From NCBI GenBank assembly GCA_944388935.1, contig CALXKK010000001.1, forward strand, positions 62,344-126,343: a stretch of 64,000 nt of DNA. Direction: 5' to 3'. How positions within the stretch are numbered: the first letter of the stretch is position 1; every line of letters begins with the position of its first letter. This document shows positions 4,281 to 52,448 of the stretch, piece by piece. Made by a program: the position numbers and the translations under genes. The notes beneath the pieces were generated by a model. That model saw nothing but the letters and a program-made list of their open reading frames with translations. It searched no databases and was not told the origin of the DNA. This DNA is from an uncultured Clostridia bacterium (lineage in GTDB: Bacteria; Bacillota; Clostridia; TANB77; CAG-508).

Positions 4281-5210
4281 TTAAGCTTTGTTGCTAGAAC
4301 CAAATACATCTCTTATTTTATGAGCAACTGTTTCTTCTATATAATCTCTTCCTTTACCCATATATTTTCTTGGGTCAAATATACTTGGATCTTGTACAAA
4401 TGTTTCTCTTATTCCTGCTGTCATAGCTAATCTTAAGTCTGTATCTACATTTATCTTTGAAACACCAGATACACTTGCTTCGTGTAATATTTCATCTGGT
4501 ACACCTTTTGCTCCTGGTAAATTTGCTCCATATTTGTTACAGATTTCTACAAATTCTGGTACAACTGTTGAAGCACCATGTAATACTATTGGAGTATTAG
4601 GTATTTTTTCTTTTATTTTTGCTAATATATCAAATCTTAATTTTGCTTCACCTTTAAATTTATATGCTCCATGGCTTGTTCCTATAGCTATTGCTAAAGA
4701 ATCGCATCCTGTTCTTTCTACGAATTCTTTTGCTTCGTCTGGATCTGTATACATTGCATCTTCTGCAGCAACATTAACGTCATCTTCAATTCCTGCTAAT
4801 TTTCCAAGTTCAGCTTCTACAACTACTCCATGAGCATGTGCATAATCAACAACTTCTTTTGTTAATTTTATATTTGTTTCGAAATCATATTTTGAACCAT
4901 CAAACATAACTGATGTATATCCGCTATCTACACATAATTTACAAGTATCAAAATCTGGGCCATGGTCTAAATGTAATACTACTGGAATATCATGTTCTTC
5001 TAAACCAGCTTCTATCATTTTCTTTAAATATGGTATTCTAGCATATTTTATTGCACTAGCTGAAGTTTGTAAAATAACTGGTGAATTTTCTTTTGCTGCA
5101 GCATCCATTATTGCTTGTACAAACTCCATATTATTAATATTAAAAGCTCCTATAGCAAATTTCTCCTTCATAGATTTTTCAAACATGTCCTTTGTTGTTA
5201 CAAATGGCAT
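4281..5210 (-). CDS. fba: Fructose-1,6-bisphosphate aldolase, class II
   Basis: MPFVTTKDMFEKSMKEKFAIGAFNINNMEF...HLDHG...GASTV motifs. GGAAGGTG SD. The ORF-track start is a GTG three codons upstream. Confidence 0.9.
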   Translation of the reverse strand: MPFVTTKDMFEKSMKEKFAIGAFNINNMEFVQAIMDAAAKENSPVILQTSASAIKYARIPYLKKMIEAGLEEHDIPVVLHLDHGPDFDTCKLCVDSGYTSVMFDGSKYDFETNIKLTKEVVDYAHAHGVVVEAELGKLAGIEDDVNVAAEDAMYTDPDEAKEFVERTGCDSLAIAIGTSHGAYKFKGEAKLRFDILAKIKEKIPNTPIVLHGASTVVPEFVEICNKYGANLPGAKGVPDEILHEASVSGVSKINVDTDLRLAMTAGIRETFVQDPSIFDPRKYMGKGRDYIEETVAHKIRDVFGSSNKA

Positions 5211-5248
5211 AAAAATCACCTTCCTTATAAAATTCTATTTTACCCTAT

Positions 5249-5277
5249 TATTTTATTTCTTATTCTTATGAATGTCA
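5249..5277 (-). promoter_or_regulatory. Putative sigma-A promoter of fba (TTGACA-N17-TAAAAT)
   Basis: Reverse strand reads TTGACATTCATAAGAATAAGAAATAAAAT about 35 nt upstream of the start codon. Confidence 0.4.
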
Positions 5278-5360
5278 ATAAAAGTTTGAAATTCATTTTA
5301 CTTGATTATTTTTCATTTTTCAAAAATTCTCTTCAATCATTTTTATTTAATAAACCTAAA

Positions 5361-5384
5361 AATGCTATTCCTAAGAATAGCATT
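5361..5384 (-). terminator. Terminator hairpin immediately after the spo0E-like stop codon
   Basis: Perfect palindrome AATGCTATTC-ctaa-GAATAGCATT followed on the minus strand by a T-rich run. Confidence 0.45.
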
Positions 5385-5385
5385 T

Positions 5386-5541
5386 TTAGTTCTTTTTGCG
5401 TTCTGCCATTTCTTTCATAGCGATATTTATGTATTCGTCTAACTTTTGGCTTTGTTTAAGTATTTTTTCATAGTCTTCGTTATCCAAAATCATTTGCTCA
5501 AGTTTCGCTCTGTGTTTCTTTATTGCAAAAGTAACATCCAT
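5386..5541 (-). CDS. Spo0E-like sporulation regulatory protein (aspartyl-phosphate phosphatase family), 51 aa; not in the ORF track
   Basis: Reverse translation gives MDVTFAIKKHRAKLEQMILDNEDYEKILKQSQKLDEYINIAMKEMAERKKN. The helical I..R..L / SQ-LD-xI pattern matches the Spo0E family. AGGAGGG SD lies 7 nt upstream of the ATG. Confidence 0.6.
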   Translation of the reverse strand: MDVTFAIKKHRAKLEQMILDNEDYEKILKQSQKLDEYINIAMKEMAERKKN

Positions 5542-5577
5542 ATCGCATCCCTCCTATGATAAAATTATAGCACATCT

Positions 5578-5607
5578 TGTCGAGATTTTTTGTCGAAACT
5601 TGTCGAC
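5578..5607 (+). promoter_or_regulatory. Three tandem Spo0A-box-like heptamers (TGTCGAG, TGTCGAA, TGTCGAC) in the spo0E-like promoter region
   Basis: Heptamers sit at 5578-5584, 5591-5597 and 5601-5607 (spaced 13 and 10 bp), 37-66 bp upstream of the spo0E-like start. A TATAAT -10 lies on the minus strand (complement of 5565-5570) with a poor -35. Confidence 0.45.
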
Positions 5608-5633
5608 AAATTAAATTTTTTTTATTTTTTTTG

Positions 5634-7109
5634 TTATTTTTTTTCAAATAAGGATATGATAAAGGTATCACCACTAAATGGATGATAATATTCTTCTTTT
5701 TCTTTTAGAACAGTAGTGCCTTCCATATCATTTATGTAATCATACATATTTGTATCTCCAGCATCTATTACCCAAATCCTTCCAGTATAATTTTCTATTT
5801 CATCTAAATTGTTTACAACTTTCATTTGTGGTGCAAAAGCTCCATATGCTTTTTCTACAGTCCAATTATCTTTATTATAGAAATATTGCTTATTGTTACT
5901 AAAATCTATTGCCACAGAACTACTTGGTCCAATAGTAGTATAAACAAATATATCATTTGGTTGTACTTCTGATTGTATTGCTTCTATTGGCTTTTCGTTA
6001 TCTTCAGAATAAGATTTGTTCCAAAGAGTAACTCCATTCCAAATTGTAAGTACTAATAAACCACCAACAACTACTATTTTTATTATTCGACTTTTTTCGA
6101 CAGATAATACATATGCTAAAGCAAATATAAATAAACCTAGCATTGGTAACATATATCTTGGAATAAATACTGCTCTTTTAAAAGATATTAATAGTGTTAC
6201 AAGTATAACTATTCCGCAAACTGTAAGAGCTATTGTAACTGGTCTTATTTTTTTCTTATCTTCTAAATATAATTTATGTACTCTTAAAATCATATAAATT
6301 AATATGAACAAACCAAAAATAGAAGGTAAACCAGAATTAATACTATCCAAGAAGAAGAATTCTATAATTTGTGTTATTATATCTGGATAATTTACACTAA
6401 TCCAAAATCCATTTGCAACTCTAGTAGATTGCATAATAAATATTACTGTACCTGGTATATAGCATACAATTTGTATAGCTCCATATATAAACCATCTTTT
6501 TAATAGCTCTTTCTTTTCTCTTAAAATATAGAATAATAAAACAATATTTATTATTCCTATAGTAAATAAGGCAAAATAATGTGTATATGCACTACATATG
6601 CTTGATATTGCAAATATTACCCAATCTTTCTTTTTATTATTTTTATATGCTAAATATGCATAAACTGCAGTAATTGTAACAAATAACATTGCTAAACTAT
6701 ACATTCTTATTTGTGAGCCATAATGCATTGTAACTGGCAAAAGTAATAATATTAGGTTAAAATAAAAACTTACTTTATCTCCAAATTCTTTTCTTATTTT
6801 AACAAAAGAAAAGATTGCAAGCAAAACAATTGGAATTACAGAAAATATTCTTAATGCTATAACACTAGTTCCAAAAATTAAAGAATATATTTTTAATAAT
6901 ACATAATATAAAACTGGGTGAACATCATTAATTGTTGATACAAATAAATTAACCAATGGCTGTCTTGCAATTCCTACAGAATATGCTTCATCAAACCATA
7001 AACTGCTATTAAAACATAGCAAAAGAGGGGCTATTGTTATCAAAACAATAAGCCCTATATTTATTTTATTTAAATGCTTTTCTAAAAAGTTTTTCATTTT
7101 CTTCTCCAT
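5634..7109 (-). CDS. Polytopic membrane glycosyltransferase, GT-C fold (GT39/ArnT/PMT_2-like)
   Basis: WFDEAYSV (DE motif in the first extracytoplasmic loop), HPVLYY, ~11 predicted TM helices plus a C-terminal soluble domain. Confidence 0.55.
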   Translation of the reverse strand: MEKKMKNFLEKHLNKINIGLIVLITIAPLLLCFNSSLWFDEAYSVGIARQPLVNLFVSTINDVHPVLYYVLLKIYSLIFGTSVIALRIFSVIPIVLLAIFSFVKIRKEFGDKVSFYFNLILLLLPVTMHYGSQIRMYSLAMLFVTITAVYAYLAYKNNKKKDWVIFAISSICSAYTHYFALFTIGIINIVLLFYILREKKELLKRWFIYGAIQIVCYIPGTVIFIMQSTRVANGFWISVNYPDIITQIIEFFFLDSINSGLPSIFGLFILIYMILRVHKLYLEDKKKIRPVTIALTVCGIVILVTLLISFKRAVFIPRYMLPMLGLFIFALAYVLSVEKSRIIKIVVVGGLLVLTIWNGVTLWNKSYSEDNEKPIEAIQSEVQPNDIFVYTTIGPSSSVAIDFSNNKQYFYNKDNWTVEKAYGAFAPQMKVVNNLDEIENYTGRIWVIDAGDTNMYDYINDMEGTTVLKEKEEYYHPFSGDTFIISLFEKK

Positions 7110-8142: not shown

Positions 8143-8457
8143 TTATTTCCATAATTTATTCATTTTGTCTTTTATTCTATTTTCGACTTCTTTTTGCTCT
8201 TCGACATCTATTTCATATTTATTGTTATTAAGCCTTAATATTGACCCCTCTTTTGCATCTTGAGGTAAATCATTTTTGTTTATATTAATCATTTCTCCAG
8301 TATCTCTATTTTCTAATACTGCAATATCTCCTTCAAATCTATCTACTGTAAATTTGTTTTCCATTTCTTCTAATTTATTTGTTAGCTCCCTCTGAAATTG
8401 ATTAACATCAATTTCGTTTTGCCCCCTATTTATATCATTCAATAGGTTTAATTCCAA
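8143..8457 (-). CDS. DUF3006-family small protein; start uncertain (TTG at 8457 with a good SD, or ATG at 8364 giving 73 aa)
   Basis: C-terminal 73 aa MENKFTVDRFEGDIAVLENRDTGEMININKNDLPQDAKEGSILRL match the DUF3006 pattern (DRFEG-AVlE...lP...KEGd). This family is commonly paired with ComEC-like MBL genes. Confidence 0.5.
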   Translation of the reverse strand: MELNLLNDINRGQNEIDVNQFQRELTNKLEEMENKFTVDRFEGDIAVLENRDTGEMININKNDLPQDAKEGSILRLNNNKYEIDVEEQKEVENRIKDKMNKLWK

Positions 8458-38425: not shown

Positions 38426-41400
38426 CTATCTTTCATCTCTTTCATCACTTTCTTTTCTTATTTCCTCCATAACAGATTTCACCATCTGTCGTTTTTCTAC
38501 ACTTAATGATGACATATCTACTTGTGCATCTTGTGCTCCTATTTGTTTTAATGCTTTCTTCACTTGATAACGTATATGATTTTCCGCTTTTTGCTTTTGC
38601 TCCTCGGTTAACCCCTCTCTTAATGGTGAAGATAAAACATTTCCGATTTTTATTTTTTCATCATCTTGACTATAAATAATAGCCATTCTTGCAGTAGCCA
38701 ATACCCTCGTAGTATTTGGGTCAAGCCCATATTCTTCCGCTACAGTATTCATAAGTCTTTCAGATTTTTTAAGTTGTTCATCATCACCTGTTTCATTAAA
38801 ATATACTGTATTATTGTTTTCAGATTCTCGGTCCATTCTTCTTAATGTTAATAGCACTCTATCTGTCATATTTGTACTATCATACAAAGGAATATCATCT
38901 TGATGAACATATAAGTTTTCTTGCTTAGATTCTACAATTCCATCCCTTTCTGCAATTGTATATTGAATTTTTGCATCAGTATATGGATTTGGTAATCTTC
39001 TTGTAGATTTCACACCTACTGTATCACTTTCTTGATGTATAGTTTTATCCGATTTTATTGCACTCGCAATATCATTATATCCTAAGCCAATTGTTACTTT
39101 GCCTAATACTAATGAATCATATTGTTCTTGCGTAATATCTCCTTTTTTTAACAATTCTTGATATACTCTTTTGTCTTCTTCCATTAAATCTTGTGCTGCT
39201 TTTTTATAGACGCCTAAAACCTCTGCTGCTAAGCCTTTTCTTCCTTTATCAGGATGTTCTGTTTCATATAACCTAAAAATCCTATTGGGTATTTCTATAT
39301 TATCAAAACAGCCTGTGTATTGATTTCTCCAAAACCAACTTTGTGCAACCAATCTTCCTTCTTCATCTTTTACACAAAAAACTCTACCATCAGGGGATAC
39401 AACGCTATGCTCCATACTTGTTTGGCCAGCTCCATGTATTTCTTGGCAACAATCTGTAAGTGTTCCAATTGTTAATGCTAGTGGGTCATCACATCTAAGC
39501 ATTTCGTATGTATACCCATTAGTTTTTCCTTGTATTCTGGGAATACTAGAAAAATCCCTAGTTTCACCTTCATTAAATAGTTTTTGTATAGCTTCAAAAT
39601 CTTCTTGAGAATATCCAGCTATTTTGGCTTGTTCGGCAACTCCCTCATTACCAATATCAATATTAGAATACACTATACTTCTTATATATGCTTGTGCTAC
39701 GTCCCAAGTTAATTTCCTACCAGCATTTGTTCTAACAATATCCTTAAATTGTCTTTGCATTGTAGCAATATCTTTACTATATTCAGGATTTGACAATATT
39801 TCGTCACAATTTTCTACAAAAAATTTAACAAAGTCCGGATTATATTCCATTTTAAAAGAATCAAATATCTGATGAGCTTTAATTGGAGTTAAGATTCTGG
39901 GAAAATCTGCTTCCTCTAATATTCCTCTAACTGTCTTTGTTCTATTCTTGTCACTTTGTGCATTAAATGATAAATTATACTTTCCATCTTTTCCTATTTT
40001 ATATGCTTGTTCTAAAATTGTTTGTAGCTCTTTATTATTTCTATTATAGCTAATTGATTGCATTACTTGTTCATATTCTTCGGCAGATAAATCCTTTGGA
40101 AGTCCTGCAAATAATTCCATTGTCCTATTAAATCCTTCATTATCACCTTGGAATACTCCCATGCTATACGCTGCTTTTAAAAGTGCTGCTTTACCATCGT
40201 TATTACGATTATAAAAATCTATGGTCATTAATTTAGACCATTTTTTCCCATTTGCCAAGAAACTATCAATTTCTTCTTCTGGGAAATTTATCATAACAAC
40301 AAAATTAGGTAAAAATCTTCCACCTGTTGCTTTATACCAACTTTCCAAAGTGCTAACTCTATGGTAACTTACCATTTTATCAATAGTTACTGGATCTCTT
40401 GCTCCTAATTTCATTAATGTATCACTATCAAATTTTCTAAACAATTCGTCATAATTTGGCATAAATGCTAGCCTTATATCTTTTCCTTGTAAAAATTCTT
40501 TCCATTCCGGATATCTCTTTATTAATTCGAAATTTAATTTGATACTAACGTTAGTATCATGTAATTTATTATTATAATACAATGTTTTTAATAATTCTGG
40601 TGCCTCATTATCCAAAAACATCTCCGGACGTCTTTTCTTAAAAAAGTCAGGAATTGTTTCGATAAAAGGAGATTTTCTAGTTAAAATATTCTCCTCTATA
40701 TTTTGCTGTATTGCTCTTTCTTTATCTTGCTTACTTTGACCTTCCACAAAAATTCCAGCGTTAACACCTTCCAAAAATTCTCCGTACTTTTCTGCAAAAT
40801 ATATTATCTCTTGCTCTGTAAGTTTTTCCCACATTGGTCTTACTTCTCTTTGTCTTTGACCATATCTTAGTGGTTTGCATTTTGTATTTCCAAATCCTAC
40901 ACCAATATCTTTTGACAATAATATCTCCCTTAATTGTGGGTTCTGCCTTACATCTTCAAAAGTTAAATCTCCTGAATAAAACTTATTTCTTAATTTTTCA
41001 TCAACCTCTTCTGGAAGAAATAAGTCTGGATGCTTTTCTTTAAAACTTGATGGTAATTCTTCAAAATATACCATTCCCTTATCTTTTATTTCTCCATATA
41101 TAGCATCTTCAATTTTTTCTCTAATACTTTCAAGTGTAAAATCTCTTGAAATGGACAATGATATACTATCTAAGCATTTTCCATAGTCAGCACAAATCCT
41201 TAAGAACTCCTCTTGACCTATTTTTTCTATAACATATTTAGCCATATTTACCTTTTTTCCTTGTAATATTTGTATAAGTTCTGGATTTTGTCTGATATCC
41301 TCAGCACTCATATGTCCTCTATAAAATTTATTTTTTATTGAAACATTAACACCATCTATAAATATATCAGGATGCTCATCTCTAAAACTTCCTGTTATAA

Positions 41401-41773
41401 AATCATAATCAGCGAAAACTCCTGTTTCTATACCTTGCCCTTTTTCTCTTGCATGAAGCAGAATTTCATACATTCTATTTTTAAAATCATCATAGCTTAA
41501 TTCTCCAGAATTAATATCTTTTGAATTTTCTTCATTGCCTGCATATGTATTTGAATCAGAAATAGCAAACACTGTAAGATATATATCATTCCCCCATAAT
41601 GTATGAGAAAACATCCCATTAGTTTCTTCATCCAACCTAATTATATTATCTATTCCATATTTTGTTATAAATCTTCTTTTACTCTCCGAATGTGGTCCCA
41701 TACTGATAGAATCAATAGGAATTTTTTCTATTTCCAGTAATTCTTTAATTCGGTGTAAATCTAATACTTCCAT
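38426..41773 (-). CDS. Large (1115 aa) repeat-containing intracellular protein of unknown function
   Basis: No signal peptide or TM segment. Three ~45-aa internal repeats (xHPD[IL]F...NKFY.G.[LM][ST].ED[IV]RQNP.L..IL). Central Cys/His-rich block LRCDDPLALTIGTLTDCCQEIHGAG...RVFCVKDEEGR. Acidic coiled-coil tail. AAGGAG SD. Confidence 0.5.
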   Translation of the reverse strand: MEVLDLHRIKELLEIEKIPIDSISMGPHSESKRRFITKYGIDNIIRLDEETNGMFSHTLWGNDIYLTVFAISDSNTYAGNEENSKDINSGELSYDDFKNRMYEILLHAREKGQGIETGVFADYDFITGSFRDEHPDIFIDGVNVSIKNKFYRGHMSAEDIRQNPELIQILQGKKVNMAKYVIEKIGQEEFLRICADYGKCLDSISLSISRDFTLESIREKIEDAIYGEIKDKGMVYFEELPSSFKEKHPDLFLPEEVDEKLRNKFYSGDLTFEDVRQNPQLREILLSKDIGVGFGNTKCKPLRYGQRQREVRPMWEKLTEQEIIYFAEKYGEFLEGVNAGIFVEGQSKQDKERAIQQNIEENILTRKSPFIETIPDFFKKRRPEMFLDNEAPELLKTLYYNNKLHDTNVSIKLNFELIKRYPEWKEFLQGKDIRLAFMPNYDELFRKFDSDTLMKLGARDPVTIDKMVSYHRVSTLESWYKATGGRFLPNFVVMINFPEEEIDSFLANGKKWSKLMTIDFYNRNNDGKAALLKAAYSMGVFQGDNEGFNRTMELFAGLPKDLSAEEYEQVMQSISYNRNNKELQTILEQAYKIGKDGKYNLSFNAQSDKNRTKTVRGILEEADFPRILTPIKAHQIFDSFKMEYNPDFVKFFVENCDEILSNPEYSKDIATMQRQFKDIVRTNAGRKLTWDVAQAYIRSIVYSNIDIGNEGVAEQAKIAGYSQEDFEAIQKLFNEGETRDFSSIPRIQGKTNGYTYEMLRCDDPLALTIGTLTDCCQEIHGAGQTSMEHSVVSPDGRVFCVKDEEGRLVAQSWFWRNQYTGCFDNIEIPNRIFRLYETEHPDKGRKGLAAEVLGVYKKAAQDLMEEDKRVYQELLKKGDITQEQYDSLVLGKVTIGLGYNDIASAIKSDKTIHQESDTVGVKSTRRLPNPYTDAKIQYTIAERDGIVESKQENLYVHQDDIPLYDSTNMTDRVLLTLRRMDRESENNNTVYFNETGDDEQLKKSERLMNTVAEEYGLDPNTTRVLATARMAIIYSQDDEKIKIGNVLSSPLREGLTEEQKQKAENHIRYQVKKALKQIGAQDAQVDMSSLSVEKRQMVKSVMEEIRKESDERDER

Positions 41774-44312: not shown

Positions 44313-45365
44313 TTATTTCTTTTCCATATTTTTTGTTTCTAAAAGTAATTTATCAAAATCTGATGTTATTTTTTGATGTTTGTTAAATTCGTTATATTCC
44401 TTTTCTGCCTTTTCCTCAGCCATTCTTCTAGAAATTTTTCCATTATCCTTTAATATATCATATTTTCTAAATTCCAAGAATTCATTAACACTTTTTGCAA
44501 ATTCCTCCATTGTGAATGTGTTTTCTCTTTCTACTAAATCTTCTATATAATCAAAATAACCAGATATCGCTCTTTCTAGTCTTTTTATTTGTTTTTCTTC
44601 TAAATAGTTTTTTGCTATCATTACATCTGATTTTAAAATTCTTCCATCTGGTGAGTTCTTCCATGTTGTTAATCCCATATTTTCTTTAGTATGATCTGCT
44701 TTTTGATATATGATTTCTGCTGCTGTATTTCCTGTTATTGCATAATGAAATTTATTTTGTATCATAGCATAAAATTTCTTTGTAATCTCTGAATCTTTAT
44801 CATAATCAATACTGCATTCTGCAAATATATCTGTTATCTGTTGCCAAATTCTTCGTTCGCTTGTTCTAATTGAACGAATTCTTTCTAAAAGTTCTTTAAA
44901 ATAATCTTTTCCAAATTTAGGTCCATTTTTTAATAATTCATCATTTAACACAAAACCTTTTTTTATGTATTCTTTTAATGTATTAGTTGCCCAAATTCTA
45001 AAGTCAGTAGCTTCTTTTGAATTAACTCTATAACCCACTGCAATAATAGCATCTAAACTATAAAAAGTTAATTCTCTTGAAACACTTCTATTTCCTTCTT
45101 TTTGAACTGTTCGAATTTTTCGAATAGTTCGATTTTCCTCTAATTCATGAGTTTCAAAAATCTCTTTTAAATGATAATTTATAGTATTTACTTCAACATT
45201 AAATAATTTTGACATCGATTTTTGAGTTAACCAAAAATCTTCATTGTCGTATAATACTTCTACAGATATACTTTCATTGTTTTTACTTTGATATATAATT
45301 AAATCTCTTAAATATTCTAATTTGCTCACCATTTCACACTCCTTTTTTTGTGTTTTGTCATTCAA
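44313..45365 (-). CDS. RhuM-family (virulence protein RhuM-like) protein
   Basis: FWLTQKSMSKLFNV...IRKIRTVQKEGNRSVSRELTFYSLDAIIAVGYRVNSKEATDFRIWATNTLKEYIKKGFVLNDELLK is a close match to the RhuM-family core. Confidence 0.75.
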   Translation of the reverse strand: MNDKTQKKECEMVSKLEYLRDLIIYQSKNNESISVEVLYDNEDFWLTQKSMSKLFNVEVNTINYHLKEIFETHELEENRTIRKIRTVQKEGNRSVSRELTFYSLDAIIAVGYRVNSKEATDFRIWATNTLKEYIKKGFVLNDELLKNGPKFGKDYFKELLERIRSIRTSERRIWQQITDIFAECSIDYDKDSEITKKFYAMIQNKFHYAITGNTAAEIIYQKADHTKENMGLTTWKNSPDGRILKSDVMIAKNYLEEKQIKRLERAISGYFDYIEDLVERENTFTMEEFAKSVNEFLEFRKYDILKDNGKISRRMAEEKAEKEYNEFNKHQKITSDFDKLLLETKNMEKK

Positions 45366-45375
45366 ATTTTCCCTC

Positions 45376-46416
45376 CTATTTTTTTATTAAATCTTTTGAA
45401 TAATAATACATATCAACACATTGCATATTTCCATCCCATAATTCTTCATTATAATTATCTATAAAGAAATTTTTTATTGTCTTTTCATATTTATCAAATC
45501 CTTGTTTAACATAGAATGGTATGTTATTTTCTGTTGTTCCTACAATCATATTTTTATATCTTGGCTTATAGTTATCTGCCAAATATTTTATCATTTTTTT
45601 GCCATATCCTTTGCCTCTGTAGTTTTCTTTAGTTGCTATGTTTTTTAACTCTACAGTATCATTATCAACCTTTGTTACCACAGAAACGCAAACAGGTTCA
45701 TCTTTATATGTTAATACAAACAAGTCCCCATCAGCTAAGTACTTTCTAACTATCTCTTCGCTTGGATCTGCCTCAAGAAGTAACTCTAAATATTGCTCCT
45801 TATTTTCTCTTTCTTTTCTTATATTAATAGAAGGGTTCACAGGTAAGAACTCAAAACCTTCTGGTAATTTTGGTGGTTGGAAATCCTCACCTAAATATCT
45901 ACCTCTCTCGGAAAAGATGCAACCACAATACTTTTGAATATACAAGCCTAATTCTCTGGCTTTTGCTTGTCCAACTTTAAATCCAACTCTAAAATCTCTA
46001 TACAAAAAGTCTAAACCATATTTTTTCGCAATCACTTCACCTAATTTTTTTATAACGTCATGTTTTTGATATGGACTTACTAAAAGTGTTGTAGTAATTG
46101 TATCAAATCCATGCTCCTTCGCATACTTTGCTGTTTGCTCCAAACGAACTGGATAACAATAATCTTGGCATCTTGTTTCCAAAGAATCTACTACATTTTT
46201 GCAAAACTTATCTAAGCCATAATCATCTTCGAAAATGGCTTCCACATTTATGCTCTTAGTATATTCTTTTAAGCAATCTCTTCTTGCCTTATACTCTGTA
46301 TATGGATGAATATTAGGGTTAAACCAATAAACTGTTGGCTCTATTCCTTCATCTCTTAGTGAATCTATGCAATATACACTACAAGGTGCACAGCACGTAT
46401 GCATTAATAATTTCAT
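45376..46416 (-). CDS. Fusion protein: epoxyqueuosine reductase QueH (DUF208) N-terminus plus GNAT acetyltransferase C-terminus
   Basis: MKLLMHTCCAPCSVYC is the hallmark QueH Cys cluster, with further Cys (CQDYC, CGC). The C-terminus ...ELKNIATKENYRGKGYGKKMI is a GNAT acetyl-CoA-binding motif. GGAGGAG SD lies 4 nt upstream of the ATG at 46416. The track ORF's first 39 aa are REP-derived. Confidence 0.65.
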   Translation of the reverse strand: MKLLMHTCCAPCSVYCIDSLRDEGIEPTVYWFNPNIHPYTEYKARRDCLKEYTKSINVEAIFEDDYGLDKFCKNVVDSLETRCQDYCYPVRLEQTAKYAKEHGFDTITTTLLVSPYQKHDVIKKLGEVIAKKYGLDFLYRDFRVGFKVGQAKARELGLYIQKYCGCIFSERGRYLGEDFQPPKLPEGFEFLPVNPSINIRKERENKEQYLELLLEADPSEEIVRKYLADGDLFVLTYKDEPVCVSVVTKVDNDTVELKNIATKENYRGKGYGKKMIKYLADNYKPRYKNMIVGTTENNIPFYVKQGFDKYEKTIKNFFIDNYNEELWDGNMQCVDMYYYSKDLIKK

Positions 46417-46429
46417 TTTTCTCCTCCTT

Positions 46430-46465
46430 GAACTTTGAACTTTAGGGACGGACCTTAAAAGTTCA
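46430..46465 (+). repeat. REP-like repeat, copy E (extended form), 3' flank of the RAYT gene
   Basis: GAACTTTGAACTTTAGGGACGGACCTTAAAAGTTCA followed by a partial second copy (GTGAACTTTTAAA). Confidence 0.6.
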
Positions 46466-46587
46466 AATATTATGTGAACTTTTAAATCAGTACCATTCCA
46501 ATCATTCCTATTTACCAATATTATTCCTTGCATGAATTCAGGTTATATCAGTAATTCATATACCTGCTCTTGACTTGTTCATCAACA

Positions 46588-47355
46588 TTATTCGTGTATC
46601 AATCTATGTATTTTTAATCTATTAACACCTATAATCTCTGCTATTTCCTTCTGTGTGAATCTGTATTTTTTATTCATAATTATAGATATTTCCTTTAAAT
46701 ATTTATTATCATATTTTAAAACGCTAATATTAATAATATTCTTTTTTCGTAAGAATTCATCTAGCACTTGTAATTTCAAATTATTTTTATCTTTTAAGTC
46801 TTCGTCATCCATAAAATTATAGTCAGTTGAATCTTTTATCAATATTGTATTTAAATCAATATTATATGTACTCAAAATTTTTAACACTTTATTTTTGTTT
46901 ATCAAATATTCTTTATTCTTAAATTCCTTATAACTTGAGAATTTGTATTCTGATTGATTGTTGCATATTTTCGCTTTTACCGGATTATTATGAATATAAT
47001 GTATACAATTTATCAAATATTTCCTAGATATAATTTCCTCAGACTTAAATCTATCTCTAAACACATATCCACATCTATCGTGATTTTTATTATAGTAGAT
47101 GGCATAACTTGTATTAACCTTTTTCATTAATTTAGAAACCAAATTTATATCTTGAGAATATACTAAAAAATGAGCATGATTATTCATAATACAGTATGTA
47201 ACTATGTATACATCAAAACTCTTTAGTTTTTCCTTTATAATTTTTAAATATACTTCGACATCTTTTTCTTTATTGAATATATATTCTCTATTTATCCCTT
47301 GTATCATAATGTGTATAAATTTAGAATTTATTTCTTTTCTTGCTCTTCGTGGCAC
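46588..47355 (-). mobile_element. REP-associated tyrosine transposase (RAYT; IS200/IS605-like Y1 HUH transposase, COG1943-type) with C-terminal HTH extension
   Basis: MPRRARKEINSKFIHIMIQGINREYIF N-terminus, HUH motif NHAHFLV, catalytic-Tyr helix IHYIHNNPVKA, C-terminal HTH FTQKEIAEIIGVNRLKIHRL. Flanked by inverted REP copies E and F. Confidence 0.7.
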
Positions 47356-50302: not shown

Positions 50303-51187
50303 TTAAACCCTAATCCACTCTTCTACCCATTCATCAGGTATCTTTAAATTTCCTTTTCCACAACCCATGTCTATATTAGGTTTATTTTTTCCGTGGTAAT
50401 CACTTCCACCACTTTTATAATATTTTCTTTCATTACATAAATTTACAAGATATTGAATCTGCTCTTCGAAAAATGTACTATGCATACATTCAATTCCATC
50501 AATATCGTATTTATCTAAGATATCATCTATTAATTGATACTTATCTTTTGCCCATTTATAGATAAATAAATGAGGTAAAAATACTAATCCTCCACACTCC
50601 TTGATAATCTTAACAGCTTCTTCTGTGCTAGGATAATCAGGCGTTTTATCTATATATAATGGATAATTTTGGTCTCCACAATATTTTTTAGAGAAAGCAT
50701 CAAATTCAGCCCAAAAATCTGCTGGAACCTTGGCCTGATTTTCTGGATGTTTTTTTATTTCGTTATAAATAGCTACACTTCCCCAACCATTTTTTGCATC
50801 CCAGTCGATTTTTTCTTTTGGATCCATTACAAGCCCCATTTGTACAGCCTTTTCATATTGAATGTTAAAATATTTTGTCTGTAACTTTTCTCTAGATTTA
50901 TCTTTATAATATTCAACTGTCCATTGTTTCATTTTCTTTGGGTCAAATTGATATCCTAATACCTCAATCAAATTTTTTCCATAACTACATTTTATCTCTA
51001 TTCCCGGAATTATTTTCCCTTTAAAATATTTATGTACATCTATTTTTTCTAGTTCTTCATATCCATTACAATTATCATGATCTGTAATAGAAATATAATT
51101 TAAATTTTTTTCTTGGGCCTTTTTTAATAATTCTATTATAGAATCTGACCCATCTGAATTTGTAGAATGCATATGTAAATCAATCAT
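50303..51187 (-). CDS. PHP-domain phosphoesterase (histidinol-phosphatase-like)
   Basis: MIDLHMHSTNSDGS and ISITDHD metal-binding His motifs of the PHP superfamily. Confidence 0.7.
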   Translation of the reverse strand: MIDLHMHSTNSDGSDSIIELLKKAQEKNLNYISITDHDNCNGYEELEKIDVHKYFKGKIIPGIEIKCSYGKNLIEVLGYQFDPKKMKQWTVEYYKDKSREKLQTKYFNIQYEKAVQMGLVMDPKEKIDWDAKNGWGSVAIYNEIKKHPENQAKVPADFWAEFDAFSKKYCGDQNYPLYIDKTPDYPSTEEAVKIIKECGGLVFLPHLFIYKWAKDKYQLIDDILDKYDIDGIECMHSTFFEEQIQYLVNLCNERKYYKSGGSDYHGKNKPNIDMGCGKGNLKIPDEWVEEWIRV

Positions 51188-52097
51188 TTCTTTCCTCTCC
51201 CACTATTGTATTTACTTTCACTTTTCTATCAGTAGTATTATCTTTATTTTCTAATTCATATAATGTATTTAATTCCTCAACATAGGGCATTAATGTAGGC
51301 GCAGATTCCGAAAAAACTGAATGTATCATTTCATACTGCATAGGAAATTTTCGCATAAAATCTCTTTTAAATGTTCTTCTGCCATATATAACAGCTTCGC
51401 TTGGACTTTTAAACTCTTGCCCTTCTGTAGTATAAAAAGCATTAGGTCTATTTTCTCCTCTTTTATATACAGTTGCATGGTCAAATAATCCTTGCTCTTC
51501 GAATTGCTTCAAAGTTATTATAAAATTATCATAAGAAGCATCATGTACACTTTTAGGAACCCATCTTGGTTCAGTATCACTTACTAATTGCATAGCATAC
51601 CTTAAAAAGGTAGAAGTATAACTTTCCAGTTTTGGAACAGCCATTAATTCTAAATCTATTTCGTAACCTGCTTCTTTATATTCTTTTGCCATTTTTACGA
51701 AACCTGATGTTGCTCTCATGGTCCCTTCATATATAATACTTAACTTATTATCTCTACAATAATCTCTAATTTCTTGACTTGCTCTATCTGCATCTGGTAA
51801 TAAGGCTAAGTGAATGTTTTCTCTATCCTGTTTATCTGCTACTTCAAAATTTGGATGCATTGATCTAACAACATCATAATCCGTAATTACTGCATTATAA
51901 TTTAATTGTTCATTTACAACTGGAGTCAATTTAGATTTTCCAGCTCCTGATTGTCCTGCTACAAAAACTAATCTTGGTTTTTTTTCTGGTTTCTTGCCTG
52001 TTGTAAAAAATAAATTAACTGAATGATAATATTGTTGATATTCTTCTTCTGTAAGTTTATATTTTGCTTGTAATACTTCTAATTCATCTTGTTCCAT
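51180..52097 (-). CDS. Zeta-toxin family kinase (UDP-GlcNAc kinase-type toxin)
   Basis: Walker A GQSGAGKS, SMHPNFEV (cf. QQHPNFDE), MAVPKLESYTSTFLRY (cf. MAVPKINSYLGTIERY), GLFDHATVYKRGE (cf. GLFSDIRLYNREG). Collinear with streptococcal zeta/PezT. Confidence 0.8.
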   Translation of the reverse strand: MEQDELEVLQAKYKLTEEEYQQYYHSVNLFFTTGKKPEKKPRLVFVAGQSGAGKSKLTPVVNEQLNYNAVITDYDVVRSMHPNFEVADKQDRENIHLALLPDADRASQEIRDYCRDNKLSIIYEGTMRATSGFVKMAKEYKEAGYEIDLELMAVPKLESYTSTFLRYAMQLVSDTEPRWVPKSVHDASYDNFIITLKQFEEQGLFDHATVYKRGENRPNAFYTTEGQEFKSPSEAVIYGRRTFKRDFMRKFPMQYEMIHSVFSESAPTLMPYVEELNTLYELENKDNTTDRKVKVNTIVGEERND

Positions 52098-52297
52098 TTC
52101 TTGCTATCTCCTACATATTTTTTTATAACTTCCATATTTTCTTTATTTATTTCATCTCTATCCAAAATTAGTATCTGTAATTCTTTTTTTATTTTTGGAT
52201 CCTGAGTTTTTTCATATTCTATGGATAGTTTTCCAACTTCTCGTGCAATCTTTTCTCGTGCAATCTCTAATCCAAATTCATTTAATAATAAATCCAT
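52079..52297 (-). CDS. Candidate epsilon-type antitoxin (72 aa helical protein) overlapping the zeta toxin start
   Basis: MDLLLNEFGLEIAREKIAREVGKLSIEYEK... GGAG SD lies 8 nt upstream of ATG 52297. Its 3' end overlaps the toxin start by 19 nt. The track start (TTG 52327) is less likely. Confidence 0.45.
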   Translation of the reverse strand: MDLLLNEFGLEIAREKIAREVGKLSIEYEKTQDPKIKKELQILILDRDEINKENMEVIKKYVGDSKKWNKMN

Positions 52298-52448
52298 TTT
52301 TTTACTCCATTTCTTACTTTTCGACAATAATTATAGCATTAAATTTAGTTTATTACAATTGTTTTGTTAAAAATACATTTTCCACTAATGTCATATTTTA
52401 TATATAAAATGCTACTCTATTTTTTCGATATATACTTTTACAATAATA

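Follow-up and report, generated by a model that had tools for sequence, protein, structure and literature searches.

The locus considered here raises the question of whether a short open reading frame (ORF) on the minus strand of the window (i.e. the whole 64,000-nt stretch of DNA that was analyzed) encodes an antagonist of Spo0A, and whether Spo0A in turn acts directly on the promoter of that gene. A sequence-only reading had proposed as much, citing a Spo0E-family pattern in the ORF and three heptamers upstream of it, and had seen in the arrangement a suggestion of a Spo0A–Spo0E feedback loop.

The ORF spans 5386..5541 on the minus strand, stop codon included, with its ATG at 5541-5539 in the ORF list. 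These were the coordinates originally claimed, and the product is a 51-aa Spo0E-family protein (MDVTFAIKKHRAKLEQMILDNEDYEKILKQSQKLDEYINIAMKEMAERKKN). In Pfam, the protein was matched by PF09388 (Spo0E-like) with 30.6 bits (cut-off, i.e. gathering score, 23) and E = 3.5e-7; residues 7-43 were aligned with profile positions 5-42 of 42. The SxxxD signature, which defines the Spo0E family (PMC11115286), is represented by S31-Q-K-L-D35 and is placed in helix 2. The block Q30-S-Q-K-L-D35 was invariant across all 33 of the aligned homologs. With this 33-homolog alignment as input, AlphaFold2 returned a model featuring helices at 3-19 and 24-50 (mean pLDDT 94.5), and the predicted two-helix hairpin is that of the Spo0E architecture. 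The comparison of the model to the B. anthracis Spo0E-like protein 2C0S yielded a TMq of 0.79, an rmsd of 1.9 Å, and a Foldseek E of 2.6; because helical hairpins (51 residues here) are generic, the Foldseek E-values are non-significant and the fold match is unspecific. No matching Spo0E model was found for the protein in NCBIfam (only a sub-threshold MtrG match was returned), and a profile search of the PDB sequences gave nothing below E = 0.4.

Fifty-one close homologs of the protein were collected by database search and 382 by profile search (length 45-75 aa). In 14 orthologs of the ORF, the nucleotide differences at codon positions 1, 2, and 3 were distributed 97:26:202, a pattern indicative of a translated sequence under purifying selection. 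An Rfam scan of positions 5000-6000 detected no RNA family. The ORF is called by public gene-calling pipelines, the exact 51-aa protein is present in NCBI, ENA, and Logan sources, and NCBI has named the homologs P0069, P0080, and P0086 [quoted passage not shown]. The ORF at 5541..5386 is a genuine Spo0E-family gene, membership being assigned by sequence, and the family pattern noticed earlier is borne out by a profile score above the cut-off, the invariant SQKLD, the modeled hairpin, and the NCBI names. As a kind, the gene is already known, given that it is publicly called and that its homologs are already named as Spo0E family; the epithet “unannotated” in the earlier reading applied solely to the track that accompanied it.

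The likeness to known members of the family can be followed further. B. subtilis Spo0E, YisI, and YnzD (PF09388) share with the window protein a small hairpin of the helix-loop-helix type and, close to where helix 2 begins, an SxxxD that takes the form SQELD in Bacillus and SQKLD here. The B. subtilis proteins are aspartyl-phosphate phosphatases of Spo0A~P, which is the expected target of the window protein. At 51 aa, the latter falls within the size range of the family (40-100 aa) and has no C-terminal extension, whereas B. subtilis Spo0E comprises 85 aa; it is nearly the same length as the Spo0E of C. difficile (CD630_32710, 53 aa), and the two have SxxxD in common. C. difficile Spo0E has an essential aspartate and represses sporulation by binding to the receiver domain of Spo0A (PMC11115286). 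In the window protein, the SxxxD aspartate would insert into the active site of Spo0A~P, such that the phosphate would be removed or the site blocked.

The window copy of the gene is chromosomal and is part of a conserved housekeeping synteny consisting of MetRS, DUF3006, a Lactamase_B-family gene, a PMT_2-type glycosyltransferase, the spo0E-like gene, and fba. An intrinsic-terminator hairpin with a 15-bp stem and a 4-nt loop (5356..5389, minus strand) overlaps the stop codon. Its calculated stability is -19.5 kcal/mol (z = -6.9 versus shuffles), its U5 run lies partly within the 3' arm, and its tail, GUUUAUU, is weak. Hairpins with compensatory stem changes are found in the same place in L007, L010, L013, L020, and L024 (e.g. 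AUGCUAUUC/GAAUAGCAU versus GCGCUGUUC/GGAUAGCGC in the terminators of relatives), so the palindromic terminator described earlier is both stable and covarying. This hairpin insulates the spo0E-like gene from the downstream fba, for which a promoter-like site is located at 5278-5250, and the spo0E-like gene is monocistronic. The stretch from the PMT_2-type gene to the spo0E-like promoter showed no terminator on the minus strand, and some read-through from upstream is therefore possible.

The signals for expression are likewise legible. A Shine-Dalgarno sequence, AGGAGGG (5549..5555, minus strand), is situated 7 nt 5' of the ATG; it is as strong as had been stated, and the Shine-Dalgarno region (AGGAGGGATGCGATATG) is kept in close relatives of the window gene. 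The extended -10 element TGTGcTATAAT occupies 5564..5574 of the minus strand, with TATAAT at 5569-5564 and TG at 5572-5571. The hexamer located 17 nt upstream of the -10, CAAAAA, matches TTGACA in two of six positions. The promoter had been described as having a good -10 and a poor -35, which is accurate; the TG extension went unmentioned in that description. For comparison, the regions 5' of the start codon were taken from 50 genome loci, resulting in 46 non-redundant promoters. In 42 of these, the TG extension was present 1 nt 5' of the -10 hexamer, and TGnTATAAT was the block of highest information in an alignment of the 26 divergent promoters that remained after de-redundancy. Transcription would start near 5557, leaving a 5' UTR of ~16 nt. 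The PMT_2-type gene upstream ends with a stop codon at 5634, and from there to the heptamers the DNA contains an A/T-rich tract, AAAAAAAATAAAAAAAATTTAA (5611..5632, minus strand). In the promoter alignment, tracts of this kind that include a T run are again seen upstream of the boxes, and the tract may have an UP-element-like role.

The heptamers themselves, TGTCGAG, TGTCGAA, and TGTCGAC on the plus strand, were found 37-66 nt upstream of the ATG, where they had been reported. Read towards the gene, which is on the minus strand, these “boxes” are CTCGACA, TTCGACA, and GTCGACA. The proximal box, CTCGACA (5578..5584, minus strand; ca. -27..-21), lies 8 nt 5' of the -10, within the spacer. The middle box, TTCGACA (5591..5597, minus strand; ca. 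-40..-34), has the perfect consensus and lies 21 nt 5' of the -10. The distal box, GTCGACA (5601..5607, minus strand; ca. -50..-44), is 3 bp from the middle box; these two have the same orientation and are separated by ACT. In the window, the distal box is palindromic (TGTCGACA). A plus-strand, “terminator-like” hairpin at 5589-5610 was considered and rejected as a by-product of this palindrome's being beside the middle box: the strand is the wrong one, and the repeats of relatives are direct, not inverted.

Over both strands of the window, TGTCGA was observed 11 times (5.1 expected), and four of the 11 occurrences were inside these 31 bp. Three same-strand copies within 30 bp were not obtained in any of 300 first-order Markov simulations of the window, and the analytic estimate for the chance occurrence of a three-box cluster in the window was ~3e-6. 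By these statistics, the observation is real, correctly placed, and far beyond chance.

To chart the boxes in relatives, all 46 promoters were anchored on the best -10, and every exact NTCGACA was listed. The boxes fell at three fixed distances, with a single outlier 12 nt from the -10. A box 8 nt from the -10 was present in 18 promoters, all of them from close relatives of the window. The middle position, 20-22 nt from the -10, was the most widely conserved, being occupied by an exact box in 31 of the 46 promoters and in the majority of the phage-borne copies described below; the distal position (30-32 nt) was occupied in 20 of the 46. The boxes at 21 and 31 nt were found in homologs with as little as 46-50% protein identity. 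In promoters lacking an exact box, a one-mismatch version (e.g. TTCAACA or TTTGACA) was found in the same position. Within 100 nt upstream of the spo0E-like genes, there were 14.8 boxes per kb, as against 0.06 per kb per strand in the other 220 kb of the loci, i.e. a ~240-fold enrichment over flanking DNA. The consensus from the 26 divergent promoters was TTCGACA-AAn-TTCGACA-N21-TGnTATAAT, with essentially no conservation between the blocks. A fixed distance of 21 nt without conservation of the intervening DNA argues for selection on geometry relative to the polymerase.

These data bear on the notion that the heptamers bind no regulator at all, and are instead elements of promoter architecture (-35-like TCGACA, phased A-tracts) or repeats that AT-rich DNA produces by chance. 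TCGACA does match TTGACA in five of six positions, and a consensus scan paired the proximal box, as a -35, with TATCAT at a spacing of 16 bp. This alternative promoter (TCGACA-16-TATCAT) was rejected: its transcription start would fall inside the ribosome-binding site, and it is unconserved. The spacings of the boxes to TGnTATAAT are 8, 21, and 31 nt, none of which is in the range of 16-18 bp, and the family as a whole keeps the C and G by which the box differs from TTGACA. Taken with the odds against chance and the enrichment over flanking DNA given above, these considerations render such an explanation very improbable.

If a regulator binds to the boxes, the leading candidate is Spo0A. Spo0A recognizes an operator whose core, TGTCGAA, is contacted specifically at G2, C4, and G5, and the specificity of C. 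difficile Spo0A is the same as that of the B. subtilis protein (PMC3485338). All three of the window boxes retain TGTCGA (positions 1-6), including the contact bases G2, C4, and G5. Footprinted Spo0A sites consist of two boxes 3 bp apart (PMC2731898), and the conserved core TTCGACA-N3-TTCGACA-N21-TATAAT has, as judged by its sequence, the geometry of a Spo0A dimer site. Read in this way, the spo0E-like promoter carries a deeply conserved, Spo0A-type operator, and direct control of the promoter by Spo0A is considered probable.

The lineage provides a more ambiguous context. The G+C content of the window is 27.9%, and the nearest genomes are those of uncultured gut Clostridia (metagenome-assembled genomes, or MAGs), including Clostridium sp. 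CAG:354 and Candidatus Merdicola; in GTDB, the genus CAG-354 is placed in family CAG-508 of order TANB77 (bioRxiv 10.1101/2021.05.11.441322). A motif search and a tblastn search (the latter with the C-terminal domain of B. subtilis Spo0A as the query) found no spo0A in the 64-kb window or in 83 loci. Neither spo0A nor any sporulation-specific Pfam family turned up in ~450 kb of related loci, and no such family was matched by ~45 ORFs of the window, which by Pfam are housekeeping, cell-envelope, toxin-antitoxin, and IS genes. A study that was restricted to spo0A-positive Firmicutes MAGs includes, in its Table S4, CAG-508 MAGs with G+C contents of 26-27% (PMC11536998), and BRZ_ MAG names suggest that the study drew on the same Brazilian project as several of the nearest genomes. 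The annotation behind that list was automated, and RF39 was also included (PMC11536998); for these reasons, the appearance of CAG-508 among the spo0A-positive MAGs is a hint only.

Against this background, the direct repeats could be construed as the operator of some other regulator, e.g. a response regulator that recognizes 10-bp-phased repeats, with the Spo0E-like protein acting on that partner in a lineage from which sporulation has possibly been lost. The failure to find spo0A or sporulation genes in the window accords with this idea, as does the description of TANB77 organisms as genome-reduced, likely symbionts (PMC11332333). Moreover, Spo0E-like proteins are known from bacteria that do not sporulate, and in C. 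difficile, Spo0E has a second binding partner in the RRNPP regulator RstA and controls toxin and motility (PMC11115286); near the window gene, no RRNPP partner could be discerned. However, the boxes match the 0A consensus TGTCGAA down to the three contact bases and the 3-bp gap, and they precede a gene of the one family known to antagonize Spo0A directly. The presence of CAG-508 MAGs in the spo0A-positive list (PMC11536998), hint though it is, and an AbrB-like gene near one spo0E-like homolog (L047) also speak against another regulator, which is accordingly viewed as improbable. We infer that Spo0A is the box-binding protein, and the sign of its effect and the biochemical activity of the 51-aa protein are inferred along with it.

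With direct control by Spo0A as the preferred reading, the sign of that control can be addressed. Useful points of reference are the spoIIE and spoIIG promoters of B. subtilis, which are sigma-A promoters activated by Spo0A~P. At these, a reversed, -35-like 0A box is reportedly located 21-22 bp from the -10 (work attributed to Kenney in 1989, York in 1992, and Baldus in 1994). The spacing is 21 bp in spoIIE and 22 bp in spoIIG, as opposed to the usual 17-18 bp, and a second box is found one helical turn further upstream; Spo0A situated over the -35 region of these promoters contacts sigma-A. The window promoter resembles them in its reversed, -35-like box 21 nt from the -10 and in its second box upstream, and activation is therefore the most likely outcome. 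It differs from them in its perfect extended -10 and in the third, spacer box of its sub-clade, and also in what it drives, namely an antagonist of Spo0A rather than sporulation genes.

The same boxes could, however, serve the opposite purpose. In that case, the extended -10, perhaps aided by the A/T tract, would be constitutively active in growing cells, and Spo0A~P bound from -50 to -21 would occlude RNA polymerase. Spo0A~P would thereby turn off its own antagonist, and the ensuing double-negative (i.e. positive) feedback would lock in the decision to sporulate. Promoters with TGnTATAAT often fire without a -35 element or an activator. The perfect TGnTATAAT of the window is preceded by TGTG, and, as described above, the TG is kept in nearly all of the homologous promoters; an extended -10 may thus need no activator, which is why activation by Spo0A is only the likelier of the two signs. 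Further, the proximal box is in the spacer (-27..-21), where a bound protein should clash with the polymerase. A precedent exists in the early promoter A2c of phages phi29 and Nf, in which two 0A boxes 3 bp apart likewise overlap the upstream core promoter, and at which Spo0A blocks the binding of polymerase, i.e. represses (PMC2731898). Several observations weigh in the other direction. The spacer box is missing from most of the family, whereas the pair at -50..-34, with its fixed distance of 21 nt to the -10, is deeply conserved, and this distance is that of activated promoters. Prophage-borne copies of the gene (see below) that have the same promoter make more sense as an on-demand brake. 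In B. subtilis, a negative feedback loop runs from Spo0A, which inhibits AbrB, to spo0E, which AbrB inhibits, and the expression of spo0E thus rises with Spo0A~P (PMC3269414); by analogy, the logic of this circuit points to activation. Supposing that Spo0A control is direct, we lean somewhat toward activation over repression, and the repressive arrangement as a whole is regarded as unlikely, if far from negligible. Of the earlier claim that the promoter has a Spo0A~P-dependent layout, the geometry of the boxes stands and is backed by their conservation; the word “dependent”, in its sense of “activated”, should be softened to the likelier of two signs.

The favored model, with activation, may be stated as follows. 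Transcription would proceed from a sigma-A-type promoter that has an extended -10 but lacks a -35 at the usual spacing of 17 bp. The two boxes 3 bp apart at -50..-34 would be occupied by a dimer of Spo0A~P, and rising Spo0A~P would switch on its own antagonist, thus constituting a direct negative feedback. Such feedback would set a threshold for, or delay, commitment to sporulation. In the sub-clade that includes the window, the spacer box (-27..-21) may either stabilize the binding or shut the promoter off again at high Spo0A~P. The conjunction of all of these elements (a Spo0E-family gene, a sigma-A-type promoter, activation by Spo0A~P, and direct negative feedback on Spo0A) is given a little under an even chance of being correct. 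The Spo0A–Spo0E feedback loop of the sequence-only reading is supported as far as sequence can take it, no result contradicted it, and the comparative data have strengthened both its gene half and its box half. B. subtilis Spo0E-type proteins are part of a feedback loop on Spo0A, and a loop is likewise predicted for the window gene; in B. subtilis it is indirect, via AbrB (PMC3269414), whereas the window gene has 0A-type boxes in its own promoter. Regarding C. difficile spo0E, no statement on 0A boxes or promoter analysis was found in the pertinent report (PMC11115286).

Relatives of the gene were also encountered in viral sequences. Twenty-one IMG/VR viral contigs carry relatives having 46-56% identity to the window protein, and 17-18 of the 21 feature the same tandem-box promoter. 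In L070, the spo0E-like gene lies between a holin-like and lysin pair on one side and an integrase (phrog_1, E = 2e-63) and CI-like repressor on the other; in L071, it adjoins an endolysin, a Doc-like toxin, and an XRE regulator. On an 814-kb scaffold, a spo0E-like gene directly follows prophage tail, holin, and lysin genes. The phage-borne Spo0E-like proteins had no match among the PHROG families, and a tblastn search of GenBank phage genomes with the window protein and one phage copy returned no match. Phage-borne spo0E genes have reportedly been described in other Firmicutes (“sporulation hijacking”). As in such phage-encoded systems, relatives of the window gene adjoin lysis, integrase, and repressor genes, although the window copy itself is chromosomal; in the phage copies of the present analysis, 0A-type boxes are present and no adjacent quorum-sensing receptor was seen. 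It is conceivable, albeit doubtful, that in uncultured TANB77-type gut Clostridia, the Spo0E gene travels with its 0A-box promoter as a portable cassette, existing as one copy in the core chromosome and as diverged copies that are cargo beside the lysis and integrase modules of temperate phages. Spo0A~P would then trigger a phage-supplied antagonist, and prophages would be able to veto or time sporulation. In a more unusual variant of this idea, the lineage would be without Spo0A, and the boxes and Spo0E-like protein may operate in a different response-regulator circuit.

What the favored model would add is modest, namely a direct loop that dispenses with AbrB, is kept across a family of uncultured gut Clostridia, and is found in their prophages as well. 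Its interest derives from the fact that the setting of the level of active Spo0A is poorly understood in clostridia, because these organisms are without the Bacillus phosphorelay; among the clostridia, Spo0E has been investigated in a single species. If the model is true, a direct and conserved wiring of Spo0A to spo0E would be a simple autoregulatory module that takes the place of the AbrB-mediated loop of Bacillus, and the spo0E-like promoter provides a compact candidate for a Spo0A operator. From the prophage copies, it would seem that phages make use of this switch as well. The model, if true, would also mean that a genome-reduced, uncultured clade of gut Clostridia retains a working Spo0A circuit, which bears on whether the clade sporulates and hence on its transmission and culturing.

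The plus-strand terminator scan returned a hairpin followed by a T-run at 5589-5610. It is made up of the middle and distal Spo0A-type (0A) boxes of the spo0E-like promoter and arises from the palindrome that TGTCGACA forms in this genome. The hairpin was rejected as a terminator, as its strand suits no gene and the inverted repeat is not kept in relatives.

Further 0A-type heptamers were located on the minus strand. A tandem, TGTCGAA-AAA-AGTCGAA, occupies 6086-6102 within the PMT_2-type gene (5634-7109), ca. 550 nt ahead of the point where the spo0E-like ORF starts. Its 3-bp gap is that found between boxes of the spo0E-like promoter, its orientation is opposite to theirs, and it is kept in about 10 close relatives (loci L007, L010, L012, L015, and L017-L022). 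The same nucleotides encode the peptide SVEKSR of the PMT_2-type protein; the tandem could be another site of the Spo0A type, or it could simply reflect conservation of this peptide. At 8182-8206, in the 3' end of the DUF3006 gene and just upstream of the start of the Lactamase_B-family gene (8121), TGTCGAA and AGTCGAA are found 18 nt apart, a separation that differs from the dimer spacing, and this pair may therefore be due to chance. Finally, in the interval 52320-52345, a TGcTATAAT element is followed after 3 nt by a consensus TGTCGAA, a placement like that of a repression site. This box precedes a small ORF (52079-52327) and then a Zeta_toxin-family gene (51180-52097; Pfam E = 1.5e-39), which together look like an epsilon/zeta-type toxin-antitoxin pair.

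Elsewhere in the window, also on the minus strand, a RhuM-family gene (44313-45365), a QueH-GNAT fusion gene (45376-46533), and an IS200-like Y1 transposase gene (46588-47355) are grouped at 44313-47355. This region may represent a short stretch of mobile or accessory DNA, the rest of the window being given to housekeeping and cell-envelope functions. For the 1115-aa ORF at 38426-41773 (minus strand), no Pfam match was obtained at E <= 1e-4, and the precomputed Pfam record of the identical protein was also empty.

Proteins that share 46-56% identity with the 51-aa window protein, and are related to it, are encoded on temperate phages and in prophages. The loci concerned are the IMG/VR viral contigs L063-L083, including L070:3001-3156 and L071:3001-3147, and also L062:10001-10183. 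Their neighbors include lysis genes, an integrase, a CI-like repressor, and a Doc-like toxin, and the same TTCGACA-N3-TTCGACA-N21-TATAAT promoter precedes them in 17-18 of the 21 viral loci. Searches with these phage-borne proteins gave no matches to PHROG families and none among GenBank phages.

In one rumen Clostridiales MAG (locus L047), the spo0E-like gene is followed ca. 1 kb further downstream by an AbrB-like ORF (2326-2538), which showed 51% identity to B. subtilis AbrB over 75 aa (E = 1.6e-16).

Tandem boxes (TGTCGAA-N3-TGTCGAC or AGTCGAA-N3-TGTCGAA) were also present in the loci of two distant relatives (L028:940-1075 and L025:560-680), immediately downstream of promoter-like sites belonging to neighboring genes; the L028 regions are mobile-element-like, with an integrase close by. 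Given these positions, the 0A-type motif seems to be in use at other promoters in the genomes of distant relatives.
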